A stretch of 64,000 nucleotides of DNA from a virus: the IMG/VR virus record IMGVR_UViG_3300045988_175036, positions 32,001 to 96,000 of that record; one strand, written 5' to 3'. This document shows positions 8,601 to 59,282 of this stretch, one piece after another; the stretch's first letter is position 1; every line of letters starts with the position of its first letter. Made by a program: the position numbers and the translations under genes. The notes below the pieces were generated by a model. It was given only the letters and a program-made list of their open reading frames with translations. It had not been told where the DNA came from and ran no database searches.

Positions 8601-11600
8601 ACAAAACTCAATTTGAAGACCTTTTCCAGAGAATTACAGCTACGACTCAGTCTCTTCAATATTCAGTGGGTGAATACCAACGAGCCTCTGATGTAGTTGA
8701 AGGAACAGGTGTAATCAATAATGAGACGCTTCAATCGAGTATCGCGCGCAATGAACAGCTAATCTTCAGCTCTCAAAATAATACAATAGTCAAAGATGCT
8801 ACAGGTTTGACAGTCATCGACGCGAGTAATCCATCTAATCAGACAAAAATTACCGCCGGTGGCCTTTTTATCACAACGGATGGCGGATTGACCTGGAAGA
8901 ATGCTATTCGTGGTGAAGGTATTGCCACTCAGTATTTGACCGCGGGGGCAATCAATACAGAGAATATTACAATACTTGATGGCATCAATCCATCTTTTCG
9001 ATGGGATAGCTATGGTATTACGGCCTATAAAAAGAATGTCTCAGATAACGGTATCTTACTTGGATATACTTCAAACCAATTTGTCCGATATGACCAGTAT
9101 GGTATTTATGGCGTAAAGGATATTACAATCCAAGACGCTTCTGGTGAGTATAAACCTTCAAGTGAAGATCAGATTTGGAATGATGCTTCTTTCGGCCTGA
9201 CTTGGAAGGGTTTCTTTCTAAAAAATAAATATGGCGCAGGTCTTGTCGAAATCTCTTCAGAAAAAGATATCAATATAAGTGATGGTACTAATGACCGTAT
9301 TCGTATAGGTAAGCTCTCTGGAGATGGAACCACTGAGAATCCTTATACCTTTGGTATTAGAATAAATGATGCCACTGGCGCGATCGTCATGGAGACAAAT
9401 AGTGATGGAACTCTTTGGCTCAAGGATAGTTTGAATGTAGAGACAACGGATAGCGGTCTAAAAGTAGCAATCGGTAAACTTGGAGAAAGAGATGATAGTG
9501 GTCTCGCGCAAGTTATAAATGCCAATGACGCTTTTATTGTCTACGAAGACGGGTCAGTCCGTGCCCTCAATGGTAACTTTACTGGTGTTATAAATGCCAC
9601 AGATGGCTTTTTCAGTGGCGTTATCAATGCTACTGATGGTTCCTTTACTGGTGTTATAAATGCGACTGGTGGTACAATTGGCTCCATTCAGATTACCAAT
9701 GAAGGATTGACAGTAGGAAATGGTGGCTTTGAGATTACAAAGACTGGCGTAGACGGCACTATTGAGAAATTACTCTATGTCGATGACGAAGGTAATCTGA
9801 AAATTACTGGTGACTTAGAGGGTGCTGGTGGTTATTTTAGTGGAGAGCTCCGCGCGCCGACTGGTACAATTGGTGGCTTTGTAATTGAAGAAAATCTTTT
9901 ATACTCTCTTGGGCAAGATGAGAATGGTTCACCAAACATAGTCTTAAAAGGAACCGAAGGCAAGATTGTTGCGCGCGACATTGAATTAGGTGTCGGCGCG
10001 GTTATCAAAGATTATATCAAGTTAGGTAACGCTTTTCTTCAAAATCCTGATATCCATGATAATAAATTTATTGAAATCAAAGATGAAAATGGCCAGCCAA
10101 TTATTTCACTAACAGACACTGGAATTTTTACTCTTGGCTCTCTCGTTTTCAATGGTATCAATTCAACTATCAGTGGAAAGAATTGGGGAATTACTCCAGA
10201 CGAGGCTCGTTTTGGAAATGTCATCGCTCAAGGTGGCACAATTGAAAATGTAATTTTCAAAACTTCTTCTATTCAAACTCTTGGTGGCCTTATGATTTTC
10301 AAACCAACAAGTCATGGAGTAGGAGAGGGAAATATTTTTACGCTTGATGAAGAAAATAGCTTTTTCCAAAAAGGAGATTTTGTTAGTATAACTTCTGTTG
10401 GAGAAAGAAGTTTTTCCATTGAGACTTATATTGTTGATAAAAATGGCTTAGAAGTTACTTTAGCAGATAATGTTGAAGGTGCAGAAGCAATTACAAAATT
10501 AGCTTCAGCTTCTTGGGTGGATGGTAGAGCTGTATCCCTATCAGATGAATTACTTATTGGTATAAATCCAAACCCGGCTGGTCTTGGTAAAGATGCTCAT
10601 CTATTTAGAAGTGGTTTTTCATTTGTTGAGCCTGAACTTGGCGAAGATGGCAAATCTCTGGAATATAATGCTCCAAGCCTTTTCTTGGGCAATCTTTCTT
10701 CTCTTGGTATTCAAAATGTTTCAGGTTTTGGTCTTTATGGTGATAATGTTTTTCTAAAGGGTACTTTGACAACAAAAACTGGTGCAGACACCTATGCTGG
10801 TATCAATACTTTGAGTGGAGTACTCTCTAATAAAGTACGCTTCACAACTCAAGGTAAAATTGTTATTTGGGCTGGTGCAAGTAATTTTGATGAAAGTTCT
10901 ATCCAGAATGCTCCTTTTTTTGTAACTGATAATGGTAATTTATTTGCACGCCAAGGTGTGTTTGAAGGTTCGATTCTTACTAATTCAACAATTCAAGGTG
11001 CAGATATCTATGCTGCGCGCATTCATGGTGGAACTCAGGAAAGTGATGGCGTTGCAGCCCTGACCATCTATGATACCGCCGCAGGTATTATTTTCAAGAA
11101 GAATTTTGATGAAAATAATAAAGAGAATGGTGGTCAAGAAACCTTTAGAATTAGTGCTGATGGCTTCATTCAAAATGGAATTGAATTTATTTCCTTTGAA
11201 GATGAGGGCGTTCAATTTTCAGGCAATCGCGCGCGGATGGTTCAATTCCAAACTCAATTTGAAAATGCTTCTCTTATTATGAAAGGGACTTCTCTTTATA
11301 AGGGAATTTCGGTTGATAGTGGTAATACACAAGTTCTTTCAAAAATTGATTTTTCTACTGGAGATAAGGAACAAATTGATTTTATAGTAGGAGAGAGAAT
11401 TGCTTCATTTACTAATGAAGAGGCAATTTTTGATAAGAAAACAGTTTTACGAGACAATGTTCTTATGGGAGACATAAATACTGTTTATGTTTCTTACCAA
11501 AAAGTTGCTAAGGGCTATGATGTTTATGTTTATACCAATGAGAATGTTGATGTAAGTTCGAATATTGTTGATATCGCAGTTGCAGGTTATGCGATTGCTG

Positions 11601-11605
11601 GATAA
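5669..11605 (+). CDS. tail-associated protein / tail fibre (Tal-like, 1978 aa)
   Basis: Lies after Dit, with a GGAGG RBS. Very large beta-rich protein with a C-terminal fibre-like region carrying GVINATDG repeats. Confidence 0.6.
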   Translation: MKKDIYQISLWEDYVVPATDTVPEHYEEQLLGIIGSDTMTAEYRATEPKLIQNINGTNTLTFKVYYTYIDTETGERQDNPFIKLLVNERKVKCLWKGQWYDFVIKSIQEDSSGKSITYTCKDLYINELSKTGFNLEFDNELENNQGTAQELGAKILEGTDWQVASEGQDIVQQTIEEPLFLVQIQTAITVYKSNGKDTYEIPSSKKILVPYSVTQTPYPQIFQFFYDEDENYAKYQEDNSVHLTGLDCSLLKNPIYSVTDDGTFTLKFGTTTVLTIPNTQPLSDWRADRPIRAPLQEYSSLVGRYCYVYKGYAGKKIYKYITTEYNDPTVVLNLVVNNKEFKDTTGWIGEGMSWQLYPPYTDISNIESYSATTYLGLQGGKTIYNAGLQKSSMYIEGGFQKGEKYIFRVKGYQTLGGAKLTTNYHIDPKVCSHDNNFTPLATSDANYINYFDVGTAIQNGDWIEYPMTCQVSIPRSKITTSNIGLFITPVVSCWIEEFQFFKEVYGKDSDGNSTRINPGEMDKNSVATEVYCYFDSATTVLDEKDIEYLWKATSDWSGSSVPEPQYSIDADGNYTYEKIRSITGKNSNRFNLLQSVAETFECWVRFEIKHNENTGKILYEDGKPQKFVYFKNEVGEENGCGFVYGIDLKTISRSINSDQITSKVVVVPNTTQYAENGVCEIAQSEYNPCKENFILNFDYYINQGLLDGGAANKDLWLSSASGGLGYYPSLKEKNEEYYKSVEENVARKLEHDKQNSTLQLYQQYLTSTTEQITSTKSDIARLAGLLSYDAARVTSYVKEHPGFEKLETLIVTLKTLEGQKTDYQGIYGNLKKSVDALEKAIEAAEARQTKLLEEIDTLHKAFYEKYSRFIQEGSWTSQNYLDENLYYLDAKSVAYTSARPQISYNISVLRLSALDEFKNKVFRIGDISYIEDTEFFGYTYIATESGKVRSPYREKVLISEITSNFDSPEKDSFKVQNYKTQFEDLFQRITATTQSLQYSVGEYQRASDVVEGTGVINNETLQSSIARNEQLIFSSQNNTIVKDATGLTVIDASNPSNQTKITAGGLFITTDGGLTWKNAIRGEGIATQYLTAGAINTENITILDGINPSFRWDSYGITAYKKNVSDNGILLGYTSNQFVRYDQYGIYGVKDITIQDASGEYKPSSEDQIWNDASFGLTWKGFFLKNKYGAGLVEISSEKDINISDGTNDRIRIGKLSGDGTTENPYTFGIRINDATGAIVMETNSDGTLWLKDSLNVETTDSGLKVAIGKLGERDDSGLAQVINANDAFIVYEDGSVRALNGNFTGVINATDGFFSGVINATDGSFTGVINATGGTIGSIQITNEGLTVGNGGFEITKTGVDGTIEKLLYVDDEGNLKITGDLEGAGGYFSGELRAPTGTIGGFVIEENLLYSLGQDENGSPNIVLKGTEGKIVARDIELGVGAVIKDYIKLGNAFLQNPDIHDNKFIEIKDENGQPIISLTDTGIFTLGSLVFNGINSTISGKNWGITPDEARFGNVIAQGGTIENVIFKTSSIQTLGGLMIFKPTSHGVGEGNIFTLDEENSFFQKGDFVSITSVGERSFSIETYIVDKNGLEVTLADNVEGAEAITKLASASWVDGRAVSLSDELLIGINPNPAGLGKDAHLFRSGFSFVEPELGEDGKSLEYNAPSLFLGNLSSLGIQNVSGFGLYGDNVFLKGTLTTKTGADTYAGINTLSGVLSNKVRFTTQGKIVIWAGASNFDESSIQNAPFFVTDNGNLFARQGVFEGSILTNSTIQGADIYAARIHGGTQESDGVAALTIYDTAAGIIFKKNFDENNKENGGQETFRISADGFIQNGIEFISFEDEGVQFSGNRARMVQFQTQFENASLIMKGTSLYKGISVDSGNTQVLSKIDFSTGDKEQIDFIVGERIASFTNEEAIFDKKTVLRDNVLMGDINTVYVSYQKVAKGYDVYVYTNENVDVSSNIVDIAVAGYAIAG
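9578..9673 (+). repeat. three tandem ~33 bp in-frame repeats (FTGVINATDG / FSGVINATDG / FTGVINATGG)
   Basis: The direct repeat is seen both in the DNA and in the translated Tal sequence NFTGVINATDGFFSGVINATDGSFTGVINATGG. Confidence 0.8.
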
Positions 11606-11617
11606 AAGGAGATATAA

Positions 11618-14600
11618 ATGGCAACTACTGGTTATTTTGATGGCGCAAAGACGAGTAGGGGCTGGTATGCGCGCCTTGAGTGGTCATACACTCAAGGCAC
11701 CTCTACCACTATTACCCTTACGTTGAAAGTGTATAATGGAACTGCGCCCTCTTATAATAATTTCACAAATTCTGCTTATTACATACTAGCTGGCAATAAA
11801 ATATACAAAACTTTCAATTGGACTTCAGTTGGATGGAATACACTAGGAACGACCACAGCTGTGGTAGAGGGTTCTAAAACTTCTTATTCTGCTAGTGCGC
11901 AATGGGTAAGTGGAGTAACTTCAGCATATACTCCTGCATCACTATCTGTGAATGGAGTTATTACTTTCCCTGCCTGTACATCTAACGTAGGTGCGCCTTC
12001 TGGAGCTTATGTTAGAACTCCTTATTGGGATAAAGGCTCTATTATTCCTCCTACGACTACTAATATGACAGTGGCTTGGTGGCCAGCTTCTGACGGAAAT
12101 GGAGGCAATACTGTTTCTTCATATAAAATTTATTTTCTAATTAGTTCCTCAGGAGCAGTTCCATCTGAAAGCAATTATTCCAAAGTATTTACAACAACAG
12201 ACTTGACAAGAGAGGCTGATGGTTCAATTAGAAGGACTTTTAGCTTACCGGTATCAACTTCACAAAGAGGACAGACCATTCGTGCCGCTATTCAAGCAAT
12301 TGGTTCTTTAGGAATGAATTCTGCGCTTGTGGCTTGCTCTACAGTGATAACTGTAAATAAGAAACCTTCCGCGCCGACTGGCCCAGTGTCTCTTTTATAT
12401 AGTTCTACTTATACAGAATGTCATCCAGAAATTATTGTTGGCAATTCAAATGATGCTTCGCAAACGCCTACATTATATTATAGCTTAAATAATTCAACAA
12501 CTAAAAATCAATATACTTCTTCAACAAAACTTCCTCTTATGGCTTCTTCGCAGTCTTATAACTTTTACACCTTTGATGGACTAGAATATAGCGATAGTTT
12601 TACTTGTGTTATTACAAAAAATATAAAACCGATATTATCCAACGTAACAGTGACGATTTCCGAGACAGCAGTCACAAAAAACAGTGCTTTTTCTACAAAT
12701 TCTATATACGCGACAAAAATAAAAATTAGTGGTAATTCTTCTAAATCTAATGGTTACTTCAAAATCCAGCTAAAATATCAAAATTATGCAGCTTCGCCAA
12801 CTTTATATAATAAAGCAGTCGAAATTCAAAGAATAGATGGAGGTCTTTTGAAGAATAAAGAAATCTCTATTCTAAGCTATGTCCCTTATGGAATTAGTTA
12901 TGGAGTTTCTTTAGTTTATAATGATGGAATAGAAAATTCTTCAGAAGTATTTATTGATACCATTCAGGGGAAAAAACTTTCAATTGCACCTTATCCAACA
13001 CTTCAAAAGACATATAATCAGTTTGATTTTTCAAATATTAGTGGAACAAAAGAAAATGAATTTTGGAATAAAATTCGTTTTTGTTATACTTATGATAGCA
13101 CGTTTGTAGGAGATAAAAGCAGATTTTTCTTATCTGGCAGTGCTCTTGAAGTATTAGACGTCCAAACTGGAGCAGATAATAACAAGAACTATATATATTA
13201 TGATGCTACTTTTGCTGATACAATTCCTTCTGGCTCATATACTCTTAGTGCAGTGTTATATGACACGCGCCATCAAGATAGTTCAATTACAGATATTACA
13301 AAGGTAGAGGCAAAAGCAATTTCTTCAATTTTGCCAATTTTGACTTCTTCTACTCAGTTAAATGTATATACTGGCGGCGCAAATGATACTTTTACAATTA
13401 CTTTTACAAAGTTTTACGCAGACGGAGAAAGTCTTGAGGATTGGTCGATTACTTCTTTGAACTCAAGTGTCACTGCTTATTTTGTATATGAAGGAACTTA
13501 CTATATAATTAGTGAGCCGGTAATAGCCGCAGCTGCTTCAGAAGATTTGGTTAGAATCACTTTCAAGAAAAGCGCTGTTCCTGGAATATTTCAAAATTTT
13601 CCAAACAAAAATGGTTTATATGCGATGAATTGCGCAATAAAAATTGTAAATCTGTATGGTCGAGAATTTGATTTTATAGGAACTTCTTCGGTTGGCGTCA
13701 ATTTCAATTCTAGTCCGACAATATCTTTTGAAAAAGCTAATGTAAAATATCAATATAATAATAGTAGTTATCCTCTCAATGATAATCCTATTAGAGAAAC
13801 ATTAGTTCTTTGCTTCTCTCCCACTATCAAAGGTTATAATAACTCTCAGATAAATTTCTTTATAGATGTTTCAAGAGCAACAAGCTCCGGCCCCTGGGAT
13901 CTATTCACAAAAGGAACTTGTTTTAGAAGTGGTGAGCCATCTTATAATTCGCCTTCAGAGTTTAGTTCTTATGGGATCGGGCGTACTTCAATAAAAGAAA
14001 TTACAGATAATAATGCTTGCTGGTTCAGAGTTAGAATAAATGACGGTTATAATAATGAAGTAACGAGCTCTGTTGTAGGTCCTTTTTCTCGCGCGAAACA
14101 TATCGCTATGGATTTGACATTATCAGAATTACAGTATGCTTCAAATAAATTTACCTTCAATTATAAAATAAATGACTTAGGTCTAGCTCAAAGTTCTCTC
14201 ACGGATGGAACAATAATAATTCAACATTCAGAAGGAGCCCTTCAAGAGCAAACTTCTGGCATCGCGTGGGTTCCACATAATTTTTCTTGGGTTTCTTTTA
14301 TTTCTGGGAAATCTTCATCTGTCAGTTATTCAATGTCCGGAGATTTTGAATATGTCCGAGCGAAAATAACTACATTGTTTACGACAGATTATCCTTCAGG
14401 TCTTTCTATTACAACTAGAAAAATTTCTTATTCTAATAGTGATTTAGTTTATAACGTCACTCCAACTTTTGCTATAAGAAGGAATCAGTTGGGAATAAAT
14501 GTTGTTGAACCAACTGATTATGCTGATGGTGCTGTGGTTATTGGCGCGGCGACTGGTAAGAAAATGGTATATTTTTTGAGCGCAAACGGTATGGCTACCA

Positions 14601-35797: not shown

Positions 35798-36700
35798 TTA
35801 GTTCATGCTGTCACGTAGATCGCGCAGGTCAAGAAGAGCTAAGTATAGAAGGTCTACTTGATCTTCAGTAACTTCCGAAAGCTTCATCTTTCGGCCAAAA
35901 ATCATCTCAACCTTCTTTGACATTGTGCGAACAATATCCGTCTTATCCTCGTCCGTTTGTGCCTTATTTACAAGCGAAGTCCAAATTTCACGAGCTTCGC
36001 TCATGGTGGCGTTGAAGTCGTGCTTTTCATTGGTAATAATTGGAGCATTGTCAACAACACGTGCGCCATTCTTTTCTTCCATATCAATTGCATCAGCCAA
36101 AGCTTTTTCAAACTCATGGAAGCCAAAGGGAATACGTGGCGATAAAAAACGGAAACGACTTCCTGCTGTAACCGTCGGAGTAGAGCGAGTTTGTATCCAG
36201 CGCTCACTTTCACCCTTCTCATTCCATGTCTGCGTGATAATCGCGATGACATCGACGAGGCTATTGACGATTTTTAAACAACGGTTATTAAGGTCAGGCT
36301 TCGCACTAATAAGCTTGCCCTCCTCGTCATAAGTCTCTTTCAAGTGACACGTCATAAGAAGGCCATACCGTATCATAGTAATTTTGCGGAGGGAATTTTC
36401 AAATTCTTTCGACAGTTGAGCATATCCCCCGCCATAGGGGATGTCCCCAATCTTAGATACTCCATTTTGCGCACAAACAAATTGTTCACACAAATCAAAC
36501 AATATGCCAATAGTATCAATGCAAATCGTCTGATATAGTTCTTTTGCTTGCGGTTTTTCAAGCTGTCGAAGAACAAGTTTCCACTCGCTCCAAGTAGTAA
36601 CTGGCTGAACCATCGCATTGCCTTGAGCGTTGGTTCCAATCTCAGTCGCTATGATGAGAGCTTTGTCGCTTTGGCAACAAAATTCTGTTTTACCTATCTT
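35798..36700 (-). CDS. Sak4-like / AAA_24 recombination ATPase, exon 2
   Basis: Begins KIGKTEFCCQ..., the second half of a Walker A. ICIDTIG is Walker-B-like. The track start TTG 36703 is preceded by an in-frame TAA. Confidence 0.75.
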   Translation of the reverse strand, partial: KIGKTEFCCQSDKALIIATEIGTNAQGNAMVQPVTTWSEWKLVLRQLEKPQAKELYQTICIDTIGILFDLCEQFVCAQNGVSKIGDIPYGGGYAQLSKEFENSLRKITMIRYGLLMTCHLKETYDEEGKLISAKPDLNNRCLKIVNSLVDVIAIITQTWNEKGESERWIQTRSTPTVTAGSRFRFLSPRIPFGFHEFEKALADAIDMEEKNGARVVDNAPIITNEKHDFNATMSEAREIWTSLVNKAQTDEDKTDIVRTMSKKVEMIFGRKMKLSEVTEDQVDLLYLALLDLRDLRDSMN

Positions 36701-36952
36701 CAATTATGTTATCGTAAGGGCTTTTTATCCCTTACTTCTTATACTTCATTTCGTATAAGTTCAGCATATCTTTTCACCCGCTATTGTGCGGGGACGCGGC
36801 CTCTTGGATGGATTATATCTTTTCACCATCTATGCGTTGCGGCTGGGCTGACTTTACCAGTCCTTCGCCTCTGATTAGCGTCTCAGCTTTCCAGTTTTTC
36901 TCCGCGTTTCTCTATTGATTGTTACCAATCAACCGCCCCAGATTATGGTCGA
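36701..36952 (-). ncRNA. 252 nt group I-like intron splitting the Walker A of the Sak4-like gene
   Basis: 5' exon ends in U (..GCGCCU). Intron ends in G (..AUAAUUG). Intron GGGCG can pair with exon CGCCU (P1 with a U-G pair). Many hairpins, e.g. UUGAUUG-GUAA-CAAUCAA, CCCGC/GCGGG, GUAAGGG/CCCUUAC. ACGCGG/CCGCGU is a P3-like long-range pair. No sense-strand ORF. Confidence 0.65.
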
Positions 36953-37036
36953 AGGCGCGCCTGCCAAGAGCAGATATTTGCCACGAAGGTCCCTCGAAAT
37001 AACATTTGGTTGTAAAGAAAGAATATCAATACCCAT
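36953..37036 (-). CDS. Sak4-like ATPase, exon 1 (28 codons)
   Basis: ATG 37036 follows AGGGGGTAAGGGGA. Encodes MGIDILSLQPNVISRDLRGKYLLLAGAP. Joined to exon 2 it gives LLLAGAPKIGKTEF, a complete GxxxxGKT. Confidence 0.65.
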
Positions 37037-37053
37037 TCCCCTTACCCCCTAAA

Positions 37054-37974
37054 TTAGAAGCCTAGGTCGGCTCCAACATTAGAAAGGGAACTAGTTTGCG
37101 CGGGAGCCTTATGAGCACTCTTCTTACCTGCATCTGCCTTCATCTGGTCAAGACGAGCCTTGCGCTCGCGCATTGCCTGGACAAGGTCATCCATATCGTA
37201 TGCGGCATCACCTTCAAACGGTTCCTGAGAACCAGCAATTACAACCAGCTCCTTCACAGAAGTGGTCTTCATACGCTCCTGCGGCTCACCAAAACCAATC
37301 TGCTCAATAATCTTCTCAGTCGTAGAGGAGAAGTTGAGACGAACTGTTGCTTTAAAAGTCTTATCAGTCTCCCAATACTGCTCAATTGCTGCAACGACGT
37401 TGGGATTAGTGGCATGAAGCTTCATAATATCAACCTTGCCGCCATACTGCGGAACAATAGTAGTAATCTCAAGCTTCTTGGGGTCAAGTTCAACACCCTG
37501 CTCATCAACCATCGGCTTGATACTAGAAATAGCAAACATAATAGTAAATTCACAGGATGGCTTGAATTCGCCAGTCGCCTTATTTACAAAGGAAGCTTGG
37601 ATACGAGGAGTAGACACAAAACGTCCTTCTTGAGTATAGAACTCATTCATCTTAAGGGTCGCGCCAGTGATACGAATACGATCAGCCTCTTCTCTACCAA
37701 CGGCGGCAACGGACTTATACTCCTTCATCACAGTCTCAATACTCGTGTAAGCAGGATTTAGGGTCTTTCCATCCTTCTTATACTTCTGAGCATAAAGAGA
37801 AACTGGAATCTGATAAGTGACAGGTGCACCATTGACTTCCTTGTCAACTTCAACGGTAATCTCGCCGCCGACAGTATCAACCTTCTGTCCATTCTTCTCA
37901 AAAGAGCCATACTTTAGATTTGTCTCTAGTAGAATACCTTCAATCTTACCTCTATTTTCAGCTTGCTTTAGCAT
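37054..37974 (-). CDS. putative phage single-stranded DNA-binding protein
   Basis: Lies between the recombinase ATPase and a DNA-binding gene. 306 aa with a disordered tail ending ...VGADLGF, like SSB tips. No firm motif. Confidence 0.4.
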   Translation of the reverse strand: MLKQAENRGKIEGILLETNLKYGSFEKNGQKVDTVGGEITVEVDKEVNGAPVTYQIPVSLYAQKYKKDGKTLNPAYTSIETVMKEYKSVAAVGREEADRIRITGATLKMNEFYTQEGRFVSTPRIQASFVNKATGEFKPSCEFTIMFAISSIKPMVDEQGVELDPKKLEITTIVPQYGGKVDIMKLHATNPNVVAAIEQYWETDKTFKATVRLNFSSTTEKIIEQIGFGEPQERMKTTSVKELVVIAGSQEPFEGDAAYDMDDLVQAMRERKARLDQMKADAGKKSAHKAPAQTSSLSNVGADLGF

Positions 37975-54920: not shown

Positions 54921-55544
54921 GCTATTTGGCGCACGACAGAAACTTACCGTGAATGTCTGAAGTGGCCTCAGTTGGGAAGGCTTACCAGCTTTATAAAAAC
55001 CGAGCAATCAAGACAAAGTATTAGCTACACTTTGAGGAAGCAAAGAGGTGGGCGGGAGTCGGCTCTCCCGTAGCTAGAAACCGATTACAGGGTTAAGCGC
55101 AAGACGCTTAGGCCAAGCTATGATGTCATATTTCCGGGGCAATTTCGGTAGTATGACGGAGCTTTTGTCAAGGGTTAGGAGATTTCCACAGATTGCCTAG
55201 GGGTCTACCTCGTAGGAGACTACCGAAAGAAAATCTCCATCTTTATCCTGCCTTAGCACAACGGTAGTGCAACCGGTTTATGCCCGGCATACGGCTCCAG
55301 ATTAGGGCGCGATCTCGGTTCGAATCCGAGGGGCAGGACCAAAGGTATCCAAACTACCTTAATCGTTTGGTGAGGACTCAAGTTACTAAAGTTAGGTCAG
55401 CTTGACATCCAACAGAGACGACCTACACAGGTGAGACAGGTGAGAATGACGGCTTAGTCCTTTCTTGAATAAACAGAACCTGACCCGTTTTGGCGCCAAG
55501 GGTGAACGCTGCTTGAAGGTAAAGAAAGGCAATAAATTTTATAT
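54921..55544 (+). ncRNA. large structured RNA candidate A (~620 nt, contains an internal cloverleaf)
   Basis: No ORF in any frame and visibly higher GC than its flanks. Helices: TAGCTAC/GTAGCTA, CGGGAG/CTCCCG, TAAGCG/CGCTTA, GGAGATTT (55178-85)/AAATCTCC (55231-38), AGGACT/AGTCCT. Promoter at 54723. Ends at tRNA-Asn. Confidence 0.55.
55247..55341 (+). tRNA. tRNA-like cloverleaf with 25 nt extra arm, anticodon-loop UUUAUGC (UAU), CCA encoded
   Basis: Acceptor CCTGCCT/GGGCAGG, D arm GCAC-AACGGTA-GTGC, T arm CTCGG-TTCGAAT-CCGAG, then A-CCA. The anticodon stem has only 4 bp plus an A-C mismatch. The long variable region folds poorly. Confidence 0.45.
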
Positions 55545-55621
55545 GGGAGCATAGCTCAGTTGGTTAGAGCGCATGACTGTTAATCATGATGTCGAAGGTT
55601 CAAGTCCTTCTGTTCCCGCCA
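55545..55621 (+). tRNA. tRNA-Asn (GTT)
   Basis: Canonical cloverleaf: GGGAGCA/TGTTCCC acceptor, CATGA-CTGTTAA-TCATG anticodon arm, GAAGG-TTCAAGT-CCTTC T arm, G-CCA end. Confidence 0.9.
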
Positions 55622-55906
55622 AATGATGGCGAGTAGTGCGAATAGAAAAGATAAGAACGAAATAGTACCTTTTATGGTGGATAAACCTATTATTCACTTA
55701 TTGAATCTATTGGAGTCACGCACGGCTCCGCTTGCTATCATTACCAACGGATAAAACTTGTTGTGAGCAAACTTACAAGTTACCTTTTTGACCTCACAAA
55801 CAACTATGCAAGCATATCTTACGCGCAAACTAGATATGACTCCCTCTGGGAGAAAGGTGATTGCGCGGCCGGTTAGCGCTCCTGTCTAAGTTCAAAGCGC
55901 GTTATA
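55622..55906 (+). ncRNA. structured spacer RNA candidate B (~285 nt)
   Basis: ORF-free. Helices include GTTGTGAG/CTCACAAC and ACTTGT/ACAAGT. Lies between tRNA-Asn and a cloverleaf. Confidence 0.35.
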
Positions 55907-55973
55907 TCCCCTTTTAGTGTAATGGTTAGCACAGCAATTGAGGGCAAGAGTGGTTCGATCCCACAGAGGGGAG
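55907..55973 (+). tRNA. tRNA-like element lacking a normal anticodon arm (pseudo-tRNA or mimic)
   Basis: Acceptor TCCCCTT/GAGGGGA, D arm GTGT-AATGGTTA-GCAC, T arm GTGG-TTCGATC-CCAC. Only 15 nt lie between D and T arms, forming UUG-AGGG-CAA. Confidence 0.4.
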
Positions 55974-56053
55974 TCAAAGATAAAATTATCTTTTCTACAC
56001 GGAGAAACTATTGATTCCGAAAACTATCCAATACAAATTGAAAGGAAATTTTT

Positions 56054-56314
56054 ATGGAAAAGATTTTTGAACTCTGTAAAGAGCGTGATATCAGGTGTTA
56101 TTTCAGTTATTGGAAGCTCGACGATTCTATTCATTTTGCTTTCACTAGAACATTTGCTGGCCAAGATTGTAAATTTATACAGGTCGTTCCGATCAAGGAT
56201 ATTAATAATAATTCTCATGTTATCGGACAGTACATTGCAGAACTTATTGAAGACAAGCTGTCGGATGAGAATTGTAGAAAAATGATTCTCGACAGAATTG
56301 AAAAGCTTCTTTGA
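56054..56314 (+). CDS. hypothetical protein (86 aa) inside the RNA island
   Basis: ATG follows AAAGGAAA. Protein-like composition. Sits between two cloverleaves. Confidence 0.45.
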   Translation: MEKIFELCKERDIRCYFSYWKLDDSIHFAFTRTFAGQDCKFIQVVPIKDINNNSHVIGQYIAELIEDKLSDENCRKMILDRIEKLL

Positions 56315-56387
56315 AATCTATTTTTATAATAAGAAAAATAGGTACACTACTTCTTTTATGTTTCGTAGTAGCTGGATTTATAAATAT

Positions 56388-56463
56388 CCTCTATTGGTGT
56401 AATGGTAGCACACTTCCCGTCAAGGAAGAGGGGTCGGTTCGATTCGATATCCTGCATAGAGGA
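56388..56463 (+). tRNA. aberrant tRNA-Asp-like cloverleaf (GUC in a 6 or 8 nt loop, irregular T arm)
   Basis: Acceptor CCTCTAT/ATAGAGG, D arm GTGT-AATGGTA-GCAC, CTTCC-CGTCAA-GGAAG. The T region GTCG-GTTCGATT-CGAT has 7 extra nt before the acceptor 3' strand. Confidence 0.35.
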
Positions 56464-56650
56464 CGGCTTGACACAGCCGGAGTGTTATCTCTGGCATACG
56501 GATTAGCGTATGCAAAGCATTTGTCTTCGGATGGTAAAATGCGAGAGAAGTCATCCCCTTGAACTTCTCACTACATACATCCCCAGCGGTTGTTATGCTG
56601 AGACCGATGGCGCGACGGTCGTTTATAATATCGCGCCATTTGTCTAAAAT
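56464..56650 (+). ncRNA. hairpin-rich spacer C
   Basis: Hairpins CGGCT/AGCCG, GCATACG/CGTATGC, GAGAAGT/ACTTCTC and ATGGCGCGA/TCGCGCCAT. No credible ORF. Confidence 0.35.
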
Positions 56651-56686
56651 GCGGGTGTAGTATAATGGTTATTATGTCTGCCTTCC

Positions 56687-57150
56687 TTCTAAACTTAATG
56701 CGTTAGATATATATGGAGCAATTATCAACTCAATTTAAAGGCGATGTGACTGAACTTTTAGTTAGTGCATATTTACTAAAATTAGGTTATGTAGTATCTA
56801 AACCTTTAACCCAAGATAGTAAATATGATTTAATTGTAGATATTAACCATAAGTTAATTCGTATTCAGGTTAAAACTGCAAGACTAAATGATCGGACCAT
56901 TGGCAAAAGTATTAAGTTTAATTGTAGAAGTACCACAAACAATGTAAGAGAATGCAAACAGCGATATTATTCGCCAGAAGATGTAGATTATTTTGCAACA
57001 TATTGGGATAATGTAGTATATTTAATCCCAGTTACTGAATGTAGTGCTGAGAAAATTTTATGGATAGATAAGCCTACATATAAAAACAGTTGTTTTGCAA
57101 ATGATTATCTGGCAGAGGAGGTATTACAACGCATTTAAGCATTGGAAGGG
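56687..57150 (+). mobile_element. 464 nt endonuclease-carrying intervening sequence in the tRNA-Gly anticodon loop
   Basis: Inserted after C36. Only 26 nt upstream and 12 nt downstream are outside the ORF and its stop codon. The ends pair: CCTTCC (56681-86) with GGAAGG (57144-49), and CTTAATGCGTT (56694-704) with AACGCATTTAAG (57128-39). Confidence 0.7.
56713..57138 (+). CDS. PD-(D/E)XK homing endonuclease (I-Ssp6803I-like)
   Basis: GDVTELLVSAYLLKLGYVVSKPLTQDSKYDLIVD...IRIQVKT matches the E...G..V..P...YDLIVD...QVK pattern of the tRNA-intron endonuclease family (from memory). Located inside a tRNA anticodon loop. Confidence 0.65.
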   Translation: MEQLSTQFKGDVTELLVSAYLLKLGYVVSKPLTQDSKYDLIVDINHKLIRIQVKTARLNDRTIGKSIKFNCRSTTNNVRECKQRYYSPEDVDYFATYWDNVVYLIPVTECSAEKILWIDKPTYKNSCFANDYLAEEVLQRI

Positions 57151-57273
57151 AAGCAGAAGATGGGGCTTCGATTGCCCTCACTCGCTCCACCGCCCCATGG
57201 GAAGTTTGCCTCCAATAAGTCTCATGACCACTACTAGATTGCACTAGTTGACTGAATAAAGGTGGTTTTATAT

Positions 57274-57350
57274 GCACTTGTAGCTCAGTTGGTAGTAGCA
57301 ATTGCCTTTTAAGCAATGGGTCGGGCATTCGAGTTGCCCCAAGTGCACCA
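57274..57350 (+). tRNA. tRNA-Lys (TTT)
   Basis: GCACTTG/CAAGTGC acceptor, ATTGC-CTTTTAA-GCAAT anticodon arm, GGGCA-TTCGAGT-TGCCC T arm, A-CCA end. Confidence 0.9.
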
Positions 57351-57430
57351 CTTTATTTGGAATCAATAGCTTGTCCACCTTTGGGCGACCCGTAATAGCC
57401 GGACATTTGAAAATTTCTTCTCGTAAATGT

Positions 57431-57459
57431 TTGAAATTTTTCTGATTTTTTGATATAAT
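57431..57459 (+). promoter_or_regulatory. promoter (TTGAAA-N17-TGaTATAAT, followed by ATTTACAGAAA box)
   Basis: -35 at 57431-57436, -10 at 57454-57459. Confidence 0.65.
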
Positions 57460-57485
57460 ATTTACAGAAAGTGAGGGAAACGAAA

Positions 57486-57662
57486 ATGGAAACTGAAACT
57501 CCGTGGAAGCCCGAAGTAAAGAAAATGTCTCCCGAACAACTTGAGAAGTGGACGGCGCTCCGTAAAAAGTGTCAAGTCTTTCCTTCTCGAAAACCATATT
57601 CGCGCAAAATCAAACATAAAAATCGAGAAAAAGAAAAAGAAAAAGAAGAAAACGAAATTTGA
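57486..57662 (+). CDS. small basic hypothetical protein (58 aa)
   Basis: ATG 57486 follows GTGAGGGAAA. K/R/E-rich C-terminus. Confidence 0.45.
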   Translation: METETPWKPEVKKMSPEQLEKWTALRKKCQVFPSRKPYSRKIKHKNREKEKEKEENEI

Positions 57663-57687
57663 AAAACTTCTAAAATTTTGGTATAAT
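57659..57687 (+). promoter_or_regulatory. promoter (TTGAAA-N17-TGgTATAAT, followed by ATTTATACAAG box)
   Basis: -35 at 57659-57664, -10 at 57682-57687. No protein gene for about 1.6 kb downstream. Confidence 0.65.
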
Positions 57688-57704
57688 ATTTATACAAGAT
57701 GAGA

Positions 57705-57746
57705 GAGAGAGGAACTGGTCTTTTCCTTTCTACCAGTTCCTCTCTC
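57705..57746 (+). other. 15 bp perfect hairpin at the 5' end of the promoter-proximal RNA
   Basis: GAGAGAGGAACTGGT (57705-19) pairs with ACCAGTTCCTCTCTC (57732-46). No T-run follows, so it is not a terminator. Confidence 0.7.
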
Positions 57747-57778
57747 AGAAAGTCCTAATGTGGCTTACTTGAAAACTA

Positions 57779-57852
57779 TCCGATGTAGTTCAACTGGTTA
57801 GAACACCGCATTGATAAAGCGGAGCTGTCGGTTTGAGATCCGGCCTTCGGGT
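57779..57852 (+). tRNA. probable tRNA-Ile (GAT) with 8 nt T loop and mismatches
   Basis: Acceptor TCCGATG/CTTCGGG (6/7 paired), D arm GTTC-AACTGGTTA-GAAC, CCGCA-TTGATAA-AGCGG (A-A at 31:39), T arm GTCGG-TTTGAGAT-CCGGC. No CCA encoded. Confidence 0.5.
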
Positions 57853-58248
57853 AGTTGGTAAGCAGTCCCAAGCCTGCATAAACACAGAGGGAGACTAATA
57901 GCGGTATTACAGTGGCCAATGTAATATCCAAAATTTCGAGACAGGCAAGTCTTCAGGCAGTAGATGTCTGATAAAACAACGACGGCGAAGGAGTCGCGAC
58001 CTTCGGAGGAGCCGAGATAAACCTACGGGGAACCGCCATCGGAGAAAAGGAATTTATTAGTCAAATCAGTTTCGTGGTTCTGGGACTCAAAACCACCTCG
58101 CGCAGTTCTTACGGCGCAATATAAATAGGATGGGCGCTATCTGACATGGCGTGACGTTCAGAAGTTTCGATGCGTGGGCTTACCTATAAAACTCATGCTG
58201 GGTCTTTGGAGCCTTTTACCTCCTGTGTGAAACAAAAGGCTCGTATAT
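57853..58248 (+). ncRNA. large structured RNA candidate D (~400 nt)
   Basis: ORF-free and GC-enriched. Contains the GTGGTT/AACCAC hairpin. Bounded by the Ile-like tRNA and tRNA-Leu, in the transcription unit of the 57659 promoter. Confidence 0.45.
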
Positions 58249-58334
58249 GCAAGTGTGGTGGAAATGGCATACACATCTGATTCAAGCTCAGATGCCCACT
58301 GGGATTAAGGGTTCGACTCCCTTCACTTGTACCA
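58249..58334 (+). tRNA. tRNA-Leu (CAA), type II
   Basis: GCAAGTG/CACTTGT acceptor, 3 bp D stem, TCTGA-TTCAAGC-TCAGA anticodon arm, extra arm CCC-ACT-GGG, T arm AAGGG-TTCGACT-CCCTT, A-CCA end. Confidence 0.85.
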
Positions 58335-59282
58335 GAAATTCGTGTCCCGCTAAGCTCTATAATGATTGTGGCGAGGCTAAGGCGTTGGCAGATAAGGGGC
58401 AACCGCACGAATTAGAATATTGCGCAGGTCGTCTAACAGTAGGACGCCAGACTCATTATCTGGAGACAACGTGCAACTCGTTCGTGCGCAACCATTCGCT
58501 TTGGCGAAACTCTCGTAGAGGATGGATTTTACGGTTCAACTACCACCGGCTTCCGAGCCCGACCGCTATGGCTGACAACGAAGATATGTGGCTTTGTCAT
58601 TTGCCGAGAGTATAATAAATAAAAACGAAAGCAAACCGTTTATTTGTTCCTTGAAAATAAAATATCTTAGAACTCGATGACAAACATTCTGTGACTAGGA
58701 ATGTCGAGGCGTTTTGAAAAGGGCGGCAGACAACGAACAAGGATACTTGTGGATACTGACCGGTGCGCGTGACGTGAGTTGCGTGCCAGAGAGGATGGAC
58801 TCCCAACCCTAAGAGGCGGCATCGAGATTAACGCGAGTAAAGGTAGGACGCGCGTCGCTGGCGTAATAGAGGCTTTCAAGATAATTGAGAGCTGAATCCT
58901 AATCTCCCTTAGTTGGTGACTGTGGGTAAATCATTTGATTAGGAAATAACCACAAGCCAGTTTGTTGTGAAGCGAAGAAATTCGTGTATAAGACGTGTAT
59001 GTGGCCTCTGAGTAGCCAAAGACAAGCACAATAATGATTATTGATAATAAAAATCAAGAACTTGCTGAATGGCTGGTGAAAGGTTCTGGTAATCAATCCA
59101 GAAGAGACTACGCGCACGAAGGTGCGGCTATGGGAAGTATGCGCGGGACGCTGCGTATGCTCAGCCCCATGGTGCTCTTGACTGAATATACTTGAAGTTA
59201 GTTTTCGGTAGGTTGAAGAACCCATAGATATTTTATTTTCAGGGAACAAATCCCTTTTGACGGAAAGGAACGTCAAAATTTT
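58335..59282 (+). ncRNA. large structured RNA candidate E (~950 nt, possibly two RNAs)
   Basis: Only short overlapping ORFs without an RBS, and about 50 percent GC by eye. Helices: AATTCGTG (58337-44)/CACGAATT (58406-13), TTCGC-TTTG-GCGAA, CGCAC-GAAG-GTGCG. Ends with hairpins AGGGA/TCCCT and TTGACG/CGTCAA plus a T-run. Confidence 0.5.

Follow-up and report, generated by a model that had tools for sequence, protein, structure and literature searches.

The window analysed here is a 64,000-nt stretch of virus record IMGVR_UViG_3300045988_175036. On its minus strand, an ORF at 35798-36703 begins with TTG in the middle of a Walker A motif (MKIGKTEF...), with an in-frame TAA just upstream at 36706-36704. 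Where, then, is the first part of this P-loop encoded? A preliminary description had read the ORF in the same way and had proposed that an unannotated, ORF-less group I intron splits the P-loop of a Sak4-like recombination ATPase. Its readings of the sequence itself were all confirmed. The intron proposal was supported by the exon junction, by intron-less alleles, by covariation and by a match between a covariance model of the intron family and introns of phage Twort. We conclude that the insert is very probably an ORF-less IA-type group I intron that splits a Sak4-like (AAA_24) ATPase gene within its Walker A codons.

The locus comprises exon 1 (37036-36953), the insert (36952-36701) and exon 2 (36700-35798), all on the minus strand. 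Exon 1 consists of an ATG at 37036 and 27 further codons (MGIDILSLQPNVISRDLRGKYLLLAGAP); it reads ...LLLAGAP through codon 28 (36955-36953), and its last base is U (36953). By direct reading of the sequence, two SD-like runs, AGGGGG and AAGGGG, precede the ATG (37038-37050, minus strand). If left unspliced, its frame continues for seven further codons (STIIWGG) into the insert and then stops, giving an ORF of 35 aa. Exon 2 runs from KIGKTEF... to the stop (about 300 codons) and encodes the remainder of the ATPase; alone, it lacks the first glycine of the P-loop. Joining 36953 to 36700 yielded in-frame GAPKIGKT, as had been claimed; the joined reading frame encodes an ATPase of 328 aa whose Walker A motif is complete. 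The predicted spliced junction is GGCGCGCCU-AAGAUAGG (GGCGCGCCT followed by AAGATAGGTAAAAC).

The joined protein matched Pfam AAA_24 at residues 21-211, a match that spans the junction (E=1.9e-31), and PHROG 124, 'Sak4-like ssDNA annealing protein' (E=1.9e-43). By these matches, the host gene is a predicted Sak4-like/AAA_24 recombination ATPase whose Walker A motif would be restored on joining. The literature searched yielded no account of a Sak4/AAA_24 gene interrupted by an intron. The gene upstream (37054-37974, minus strand), previously taken to be SSB-like, matched no SSB family. It matched only PHROG 2367, a family of unknown function, and Pfam YorF was present in its homologues.

Protein searches recovered 328-aa homologues (P0001-P0005) that were 86-88% identical to the predicted spliced product and had N-termini close to it; in two of them (P0001 and P0003, 87-88% identity) the first 33 residues were identical to it. 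Other homologues were products of 301 aa and 271 aa that begin with MKIGKT or further in, and these are the same mis-annotation in relatives. At the DNA level, intron-less alleles (L007, L128-L130) read ...CCN/AAGAT... at the insertion point, and four further loci (L005, L006, L008 and L048) carried an insert of 250-252 nt at exactly this point. In the adjoining 400 nt of exon 2, the insert-bearing L005 and the insert-free L128 and L129 shared 99-100% identity. Judged by sequence comparison, such presence/absence alleles in near-identical phages show a recent and precise gain or loss of the insert. A megablast search found no near-identical copies of the 2.3-kb region in GenBank phages.

The alleles and the protein sequence together fix the boundaries of the insert. 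Shifting the boundary by one base in either direction fails to restore CCN-AAG, and therefore the 5' exon ends with U and the insert ends with G. This demonstrates the exon junction and both ends of the insert: the 252 nt are preceded by U (36953) and end in G (36701), as first described, and the uninterrupted Sak4/AAA_24 homologues gave an identical junction, with the same boundaries in the intron-less alleles. The exon bases GCGCCT, which P1 requires, were kept in all intron-bearing alleles, whereas intron-less alleles varied here at synonymous sites and had GCTCCG, GCGCCA or GCTCCT. We also considered co-conversion of the flanking exon as a sign of recent homing. A first comparison was positive, with exon 1 identities to the window of 96% for the intron-bearing L005 and 68% for the intron-less L007. 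However, in the intron-less L128-L130 (99% identical to L005 in exon 2), exon 1 was 92-93% identical to the window; because these alleles are equally close, the similarity is not linked to the intron, and co-conversion was dropped. A consistent difference in exon 1 between intron-bearing and intron-less alleles was confined to the last six bases.

The insert (36701-36952, minus strand; 252 nt) contains no ORF and has stops in all three frames. None of 200 dinucleotide-shuffled versions folded as well (z = -3.2). The last five bases of exon 1, CGCCU, form the 5' strand of P1. Together with U1 of the intron, they can pair with GGGGCG (intron 14-19; 36934-36939), the internal guide sequence, placing a U(-1)·G15 wobble at the 5' splice site; the ability of GGGCG (intron 15-19) to pair with the exon, noted before, was confirmed. 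Just 5' of the guide, AUCU (intron 10-13; 36940-36943) is a P10 candidate that can pair with bases 2-5 of exon 2 (AGAU), a short helix of 4 bp with a one-base offset. Directly after the guide lies P2, the GNRA-capped hairpin of the preliminary description, which consists of 8 bp (GUUGAUUG/CAAUCAAU) closed by a GUAA loop (intron 20-39; 36914-36933).

The two further helices that had been suggested, ACGCGG/CCGCGU as P3 and CCCGC/GCGGG as P8, were borne out by covariation. P3 (36907-36902/36799-36794; intron 46-51/154-159) encloses P4, P5, P6, P6a, the 5' strand of P7 and P7.1 (36794-36907). The helices P4-P7, P7.1 and P9 were absent from the earlier assignments and are placed here. P4 lies at 36894-36891/36874-36871 (intron 59-62/79-82, positions set by hand) and is followed by J4/5 (AA) and a P5 of 3 bp (36888-36886/36879-36877; intron 65-67/74-76). 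P6 (36869-36867/36843-36841; intron 84-86/110-112) is extended by P6a, with one A·C mismatch (36863-36856/36852-36845; intron 90-97/101-108). A helix in the single-sequence minimum free energy fold, CUGG-GCUGA/UCAGC-CCAG, was not conserved in relatives and was rejected in favour of P4, P5, P6 and P6a.

J6/7 (GCAA) leads into P7, CGCAUA paired with UAUGC-U-G (36836-36831/36768-36762; intron 117-122/185-191). P7 (36762-36836) crosses P3 and thereby creates the group I pseudoknot. It is presumed to be the guanosine-binding helix, and near-invariant C-G and G-C pairs flank the one bulged U on its 3' strand, an arrangement compatible with the canonical binding site. P7.1 (GAUGG/CCAUC; 36830-36826/36811-36807; intron 123-127/142-146) covaries in all five pairs; the window copy lacks an inner, P7.2-like second hairpin that is present in many relatives. 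The P8 hairpin spans 36777-36792 (intron 161-165/172-176), and all six P8 pairs covaried in alignment A4. It is followed on its 3' side by J8/7 (UGAAAAGA), by P9 (36759-36753/36744-36738; intron 194-200/209-215) and P9.1 (36735-36729/36720-36714; intron 218-224/233-239), and by a 3' tail (GAUAACAUAAUU) that precedes the terminal omega-G (G252; 36701). The motif UGAAAAGAUAU is present in two copies in the intron (minus strand), one in the P7.1 loop (36825-36815; intron 128-138) and the other formed by J8/7 and the first bases of the 3' strand of P7 (36775-36765; intron 178-188); each of the two is conserved in much of the family.

Covariation was assessed in a MAFFT-based alignment (A3) of 35 cores, which start immediately before P3 and include the intron's final base. 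Unguided RNAalifold prediction on A3 returned P3, P4, P5, P6, P6a, P7.1, P9 and P9.1, with compensatory changes in 33 of 40 pairs. P7 was not predictable by this program because it crosses P3; P7 and P8 were added to the predicted structure, giving 52 pairs. Across these pairs, 95.2% of the alignment cells were paired, compared with 32-41% when the 3' partners were slid by one to three columns; 40 of the 52 had changed on both sides, and the covariation score was 0.64 (≤0.12 when slid). When 74 copies were aligned to R1, a covariance model built from the family of the window intron only, 95.0% of cells were paired (34-43% slid) and 45 of the 52 pairs were doubly changed. The 74-copy alignment leans towards the structure because it was fitted to R1, whereas the MAFFT-based counts (RNAalifold and the 35 cores) are without this bias. 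The first P8 register in A3 was one column off for most sequences and was replaced by that of the model-based alignment.

Compensatory pairs were found in every helix, P7 included. P7 reads GCAUA/UAUGC in the family, GACUA/UAGUC in the Clostridium phage phiCP13O intron (L004) and in phage Twort, and GAGUA/UACUC in L009, and we conclude that the two middle pairs have been exchanged compensatorily. These data demonstrate a covarying group I architecture, in which the P4-P6 and P3-P8 domains of the core are present together with the P3/P7 pseudoknot.

How widespread is this intron? A blastn search of GenBank phages with the 252 nt returned 104 records, most of which shared the 3' 75 nt at 77-84% identity. 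This P9-P9.1 stretch is 77-84% identical to intron 3' ends in phages of Staphylococcus, Clostridium and Bacillus, and in the four loci examined the match ended within a few bases of the downstream exon start. The genes interrupted in the matched phages include those for the terminase large subunit, tape measure and major capsid proteins. A human-gut phage (MT835481; L001) matched positions 49-246 inside a split terminase gene. Scanning IMG/VR for one conserved 15-mer, followed by nhmmer, yielded approximately 80 homologous matches in approximately 65 loci, some of them representing two halves of a single ORF-split intron. Some of these loci contained two introns, and several introns carried endonuclease ORFs in their loops. 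Within the window, a family HMM found the described intron only; an R1 match (10 bits, E=0.2) fell at 10243-10351, in what resembles ordinary coding sequence, and was rejected.

Among the GenBank relatives, same-family introns, unannotated or partly annotated like that of the human-gut phage, occur in the terminase large subunit gene of Staphylococcus phage S-CoN_Ph1 (L002) and in the tape-measure gene of Clostridium phage phiCP13O, both with an endonuclease ORF inside the intron and the latter with the canonical P7 sequence, and in C. difficile phage phiCDIF1296T (L003). Together with the human-gut phage intron, these introns scored 79-189 bits with R1; they differ from the window intron in the genes interrupted and share with it J6/7-P7, J7.1/3 (CCA[AC]GAG), J8/7, L9.1 (GAUAAAAAG) and the GAUAACA tail.

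In several loci, two family members lay a few hundred bases apart (L001, 1468-1717 and 2515-2663; L023, 3344-3572 and 3717-3940; L009, 3857-4106 and 4235-4484; L037, 8792-9021 and 9814-10037). In L001, the first splits the terminase gene and the second is located just downstream of the second terminase ORF. ORFs with an HNH-like motif (e.g. ...CPENCRWLT...) ran from the P5 region into the ribozyme core in L065 (4019-4290), L039 (627-897), L111 (3877-4180) and L080 (4183-4455). The coding sequence of such ORFs therefore overlaps the 3' strand of P4 and the P6 strands.

An Infernal search with the Rfam group I model RF00028, one of the checks named in the preliminary description, did not retrieve the intron: no match was obtained on 36400-37300 at E≤10. 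Rfam scans of the whole window at gathering thresholds also gave no intron match, and none of the group II families was matched. RF00028 likewise failed on L001-L003 (E≤1) and produced a partial match of 35 bits on L004, covering P8-J8/7-P7'-P9. We then checked 14 further loci, each with a family member scoring at least 143 bits in R1 (L005, L021, L038, L039, L055, L057, L064, L068, L069, L075, L081, L083, L087 and L088). RF00028 was blind to the family member in 13 of them (E≤1) and scored 24.6 bits in the remaining one, whereas canonical, unrelated introns in the same loci scored 94-100 bits (L075, 4606-4821; L038, 3624-3845). With R1, the window copy scored 222.5 bits, among the best in the family, which argues that it is not degenerate.

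Of the three introns in orf142 of phage Twort, R1 also detected two, at 37 and 29 bits (E approximately 1e-9 and 4e-7), and at these two sites RF00028 scored 97 and 101 bits. The Twort orf142 introns are reportedly self-splicing, and one is said to have a crystal structure, in work attributed to Landthaler & Shub (1999) and Golden et al. (2005). They agree with the window intron in the order of the core (P3-P4-P5-P6-P7-P7.1-P3'-P8-P7'-P9-P9.1), the tail and the terminal G, are of similar size (~250 nt) and, like it, have no ORF. They differ in P7 (GACUA/UAGUC compared with GCAUA/UAUGC), in a much longer P5 and in the host gene, and the similarity is low (37 and 29 bits, compared with 222 for the window). 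R1 thus recovers family members that were missed and demonstrates their kinship to proven ribozymes. We attribute the negative RF00028 result to divergence of the family (exchanged P7 pairs, tiny P5) and not to absence of a group I fold. The classical phage IA2 introns T4 td, nrdB and sunY and the introns of Bastillevirinae were likened to the window intron by description; they are found by Rfam and GISSD models, whereas RF00028 misses most of the window family.

Subgroup IA is recognized by additional helices (P7.1/P7.2) that separate P7 from the 3' strand of P3 (PMC3984707). By its P7.1, the modelled window intron is of subgroup IA (IA2-like), an assignment that holds at the IA level and does not separate IA2 from IA3. 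Catalysis and splicing in infected cells would follow the standard group I pathway. The pre-mRNA would fold into the P3-P9 core, and pairing of the GGGGCG guide with exon CGCCU would form P1, whose U·G wobble would lie where cleavage takes place. With P7 as its binding site, a free guanosine would attack after U36953. G36701 would then occupy P7 while the short P10 holds exon 2, and the 3'-OH of exon 1 would attack after G36701. The ligated mRNA would encode the 328-aa ATPase with its P-loop, GAPKIGKT, intact. Without splicing, translation of exon 1 would end seven codons into the intron.

A different possibility is that the insert is group I by ancestry but does not splice by itself, depending instead on a phage or host protein or on conditions in the infected cell. 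There is a precedent: in a survey of Bastillevirinae, eight introns were found to splice, and four of these spliced solely in infected bacteria, failing to do so in vitro (PMC11878797). Self-splicing without help can therefore not be taken for granted, and we kept the helper-dependent variant live. The minimal P5 of the window copy (3 bp) and its missing inner P7.2-like hairpin would also fit such a dependence. However, all core helices are intact, the score of 222.5 bits places this copy at the top of the family, and the GNRA loop of P2 (L2) could stabilize the fold via the usual tertiary contacts. On balance, we regard a need for helpers as unlikely.

Far less probable is that the insert is retained and the gene broken, yielding a 35-aa peptide and a truncated ATPase from TTG 36703, either as a pseudogene or as a split protein. 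Gene callers give exactly such products in relatives (301 aa and 271 aa), but the RNA of the insert is conserved, with 40-45 of 52 pairs showing compensatory changes, exon 1 is conserved as protein and kept precisely in frame with exon 2, and several diverged phages with otherwise intact exons still carry this insert. Moreover, the truncated ORF would have to do without the first P-loop glycine, and no SD-like sequence was evident just before its TTG (36704-36720), a stretch made up of the P9.1 3' strand and the GAUAACAUAA tail.

Skipping or removal by another route (bypass during translation, splicing as an intron of group II or some other type, or a miniature transposon acting on the DNA) would suit the insert length of exactly 84 codons, a multiple of three, but can practically be dismissed, as known bypassed gaps are to our knowledge all far shorter than 252 nt, matching take-off and landing codons were lacking, no group II family matched, neither terminal inverted repeats nor a target-site duplication were apparent at the ends by reading the sequence, and the architecture is that of a group I intron, with pseudoknot, omega-G and U·G P1.

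If the insert is a group I intron, can it move? Relatives in the family carry HNH-like or LAGLIDADG ORFs, whereas the window intron contains no endonuclease ORF in any of its three frames and therefore cannot home by itself. Locus L048 is 97-98% identical to the window over approximately 4.4 kb and has the same intron. Its ATPase gene also contains a second member of the intron family (1.26 kb; 11371-12630, minus strand), inserted after ...ICIDTVG-AU and carrying a LAGLIDADG endonuclease ORF of 330 aa in its P7.1 loop. The corresponding site lies at approximately 36490-36512 of the window, which is without the second intron. Homing elements tend to target conserved catalytic motifs, and an intron in the P-loop with a sibling at the Walker-B-like ICIDT motif fits this pattern. 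We tentatively suggest that the family may be a large, uncatalogued IA-type branch (re-paired P7, minimal P5, double UGAAAAGAUAU) unseen by Rfam, whose ORF-less copies are perhaps mobilized in trans by endonucleases of sibling introns; this is conceivable rather than probable.

Phage group I introns occur in genes of DNA metabolism and packaging, at conserved catalytic motifs, and a homing endonuclease is often present or absent (PMC3984707, PMC11878797). A phage group I intron that lacks an ORF is a common kind of element and introduces no new principle. The added value is modest and consists of a corrected gene model, where the uncorrected annotation would be a truncated ATPase and an orphan 35-aa ORF, and of the recognition of a sizeable intron family that escapes the Rfam model. 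Since RF00028 misses this family almost wholly, surveys relying on it undercount phage introns. Approximately 20 kb from the intron, the plus strand of the window carries a cluster of a full-length ROOL RNA (58649-59242, 286 bits), a drum RNA (55115-55242, 57 bits) and six tRNA genes (55247-58490).
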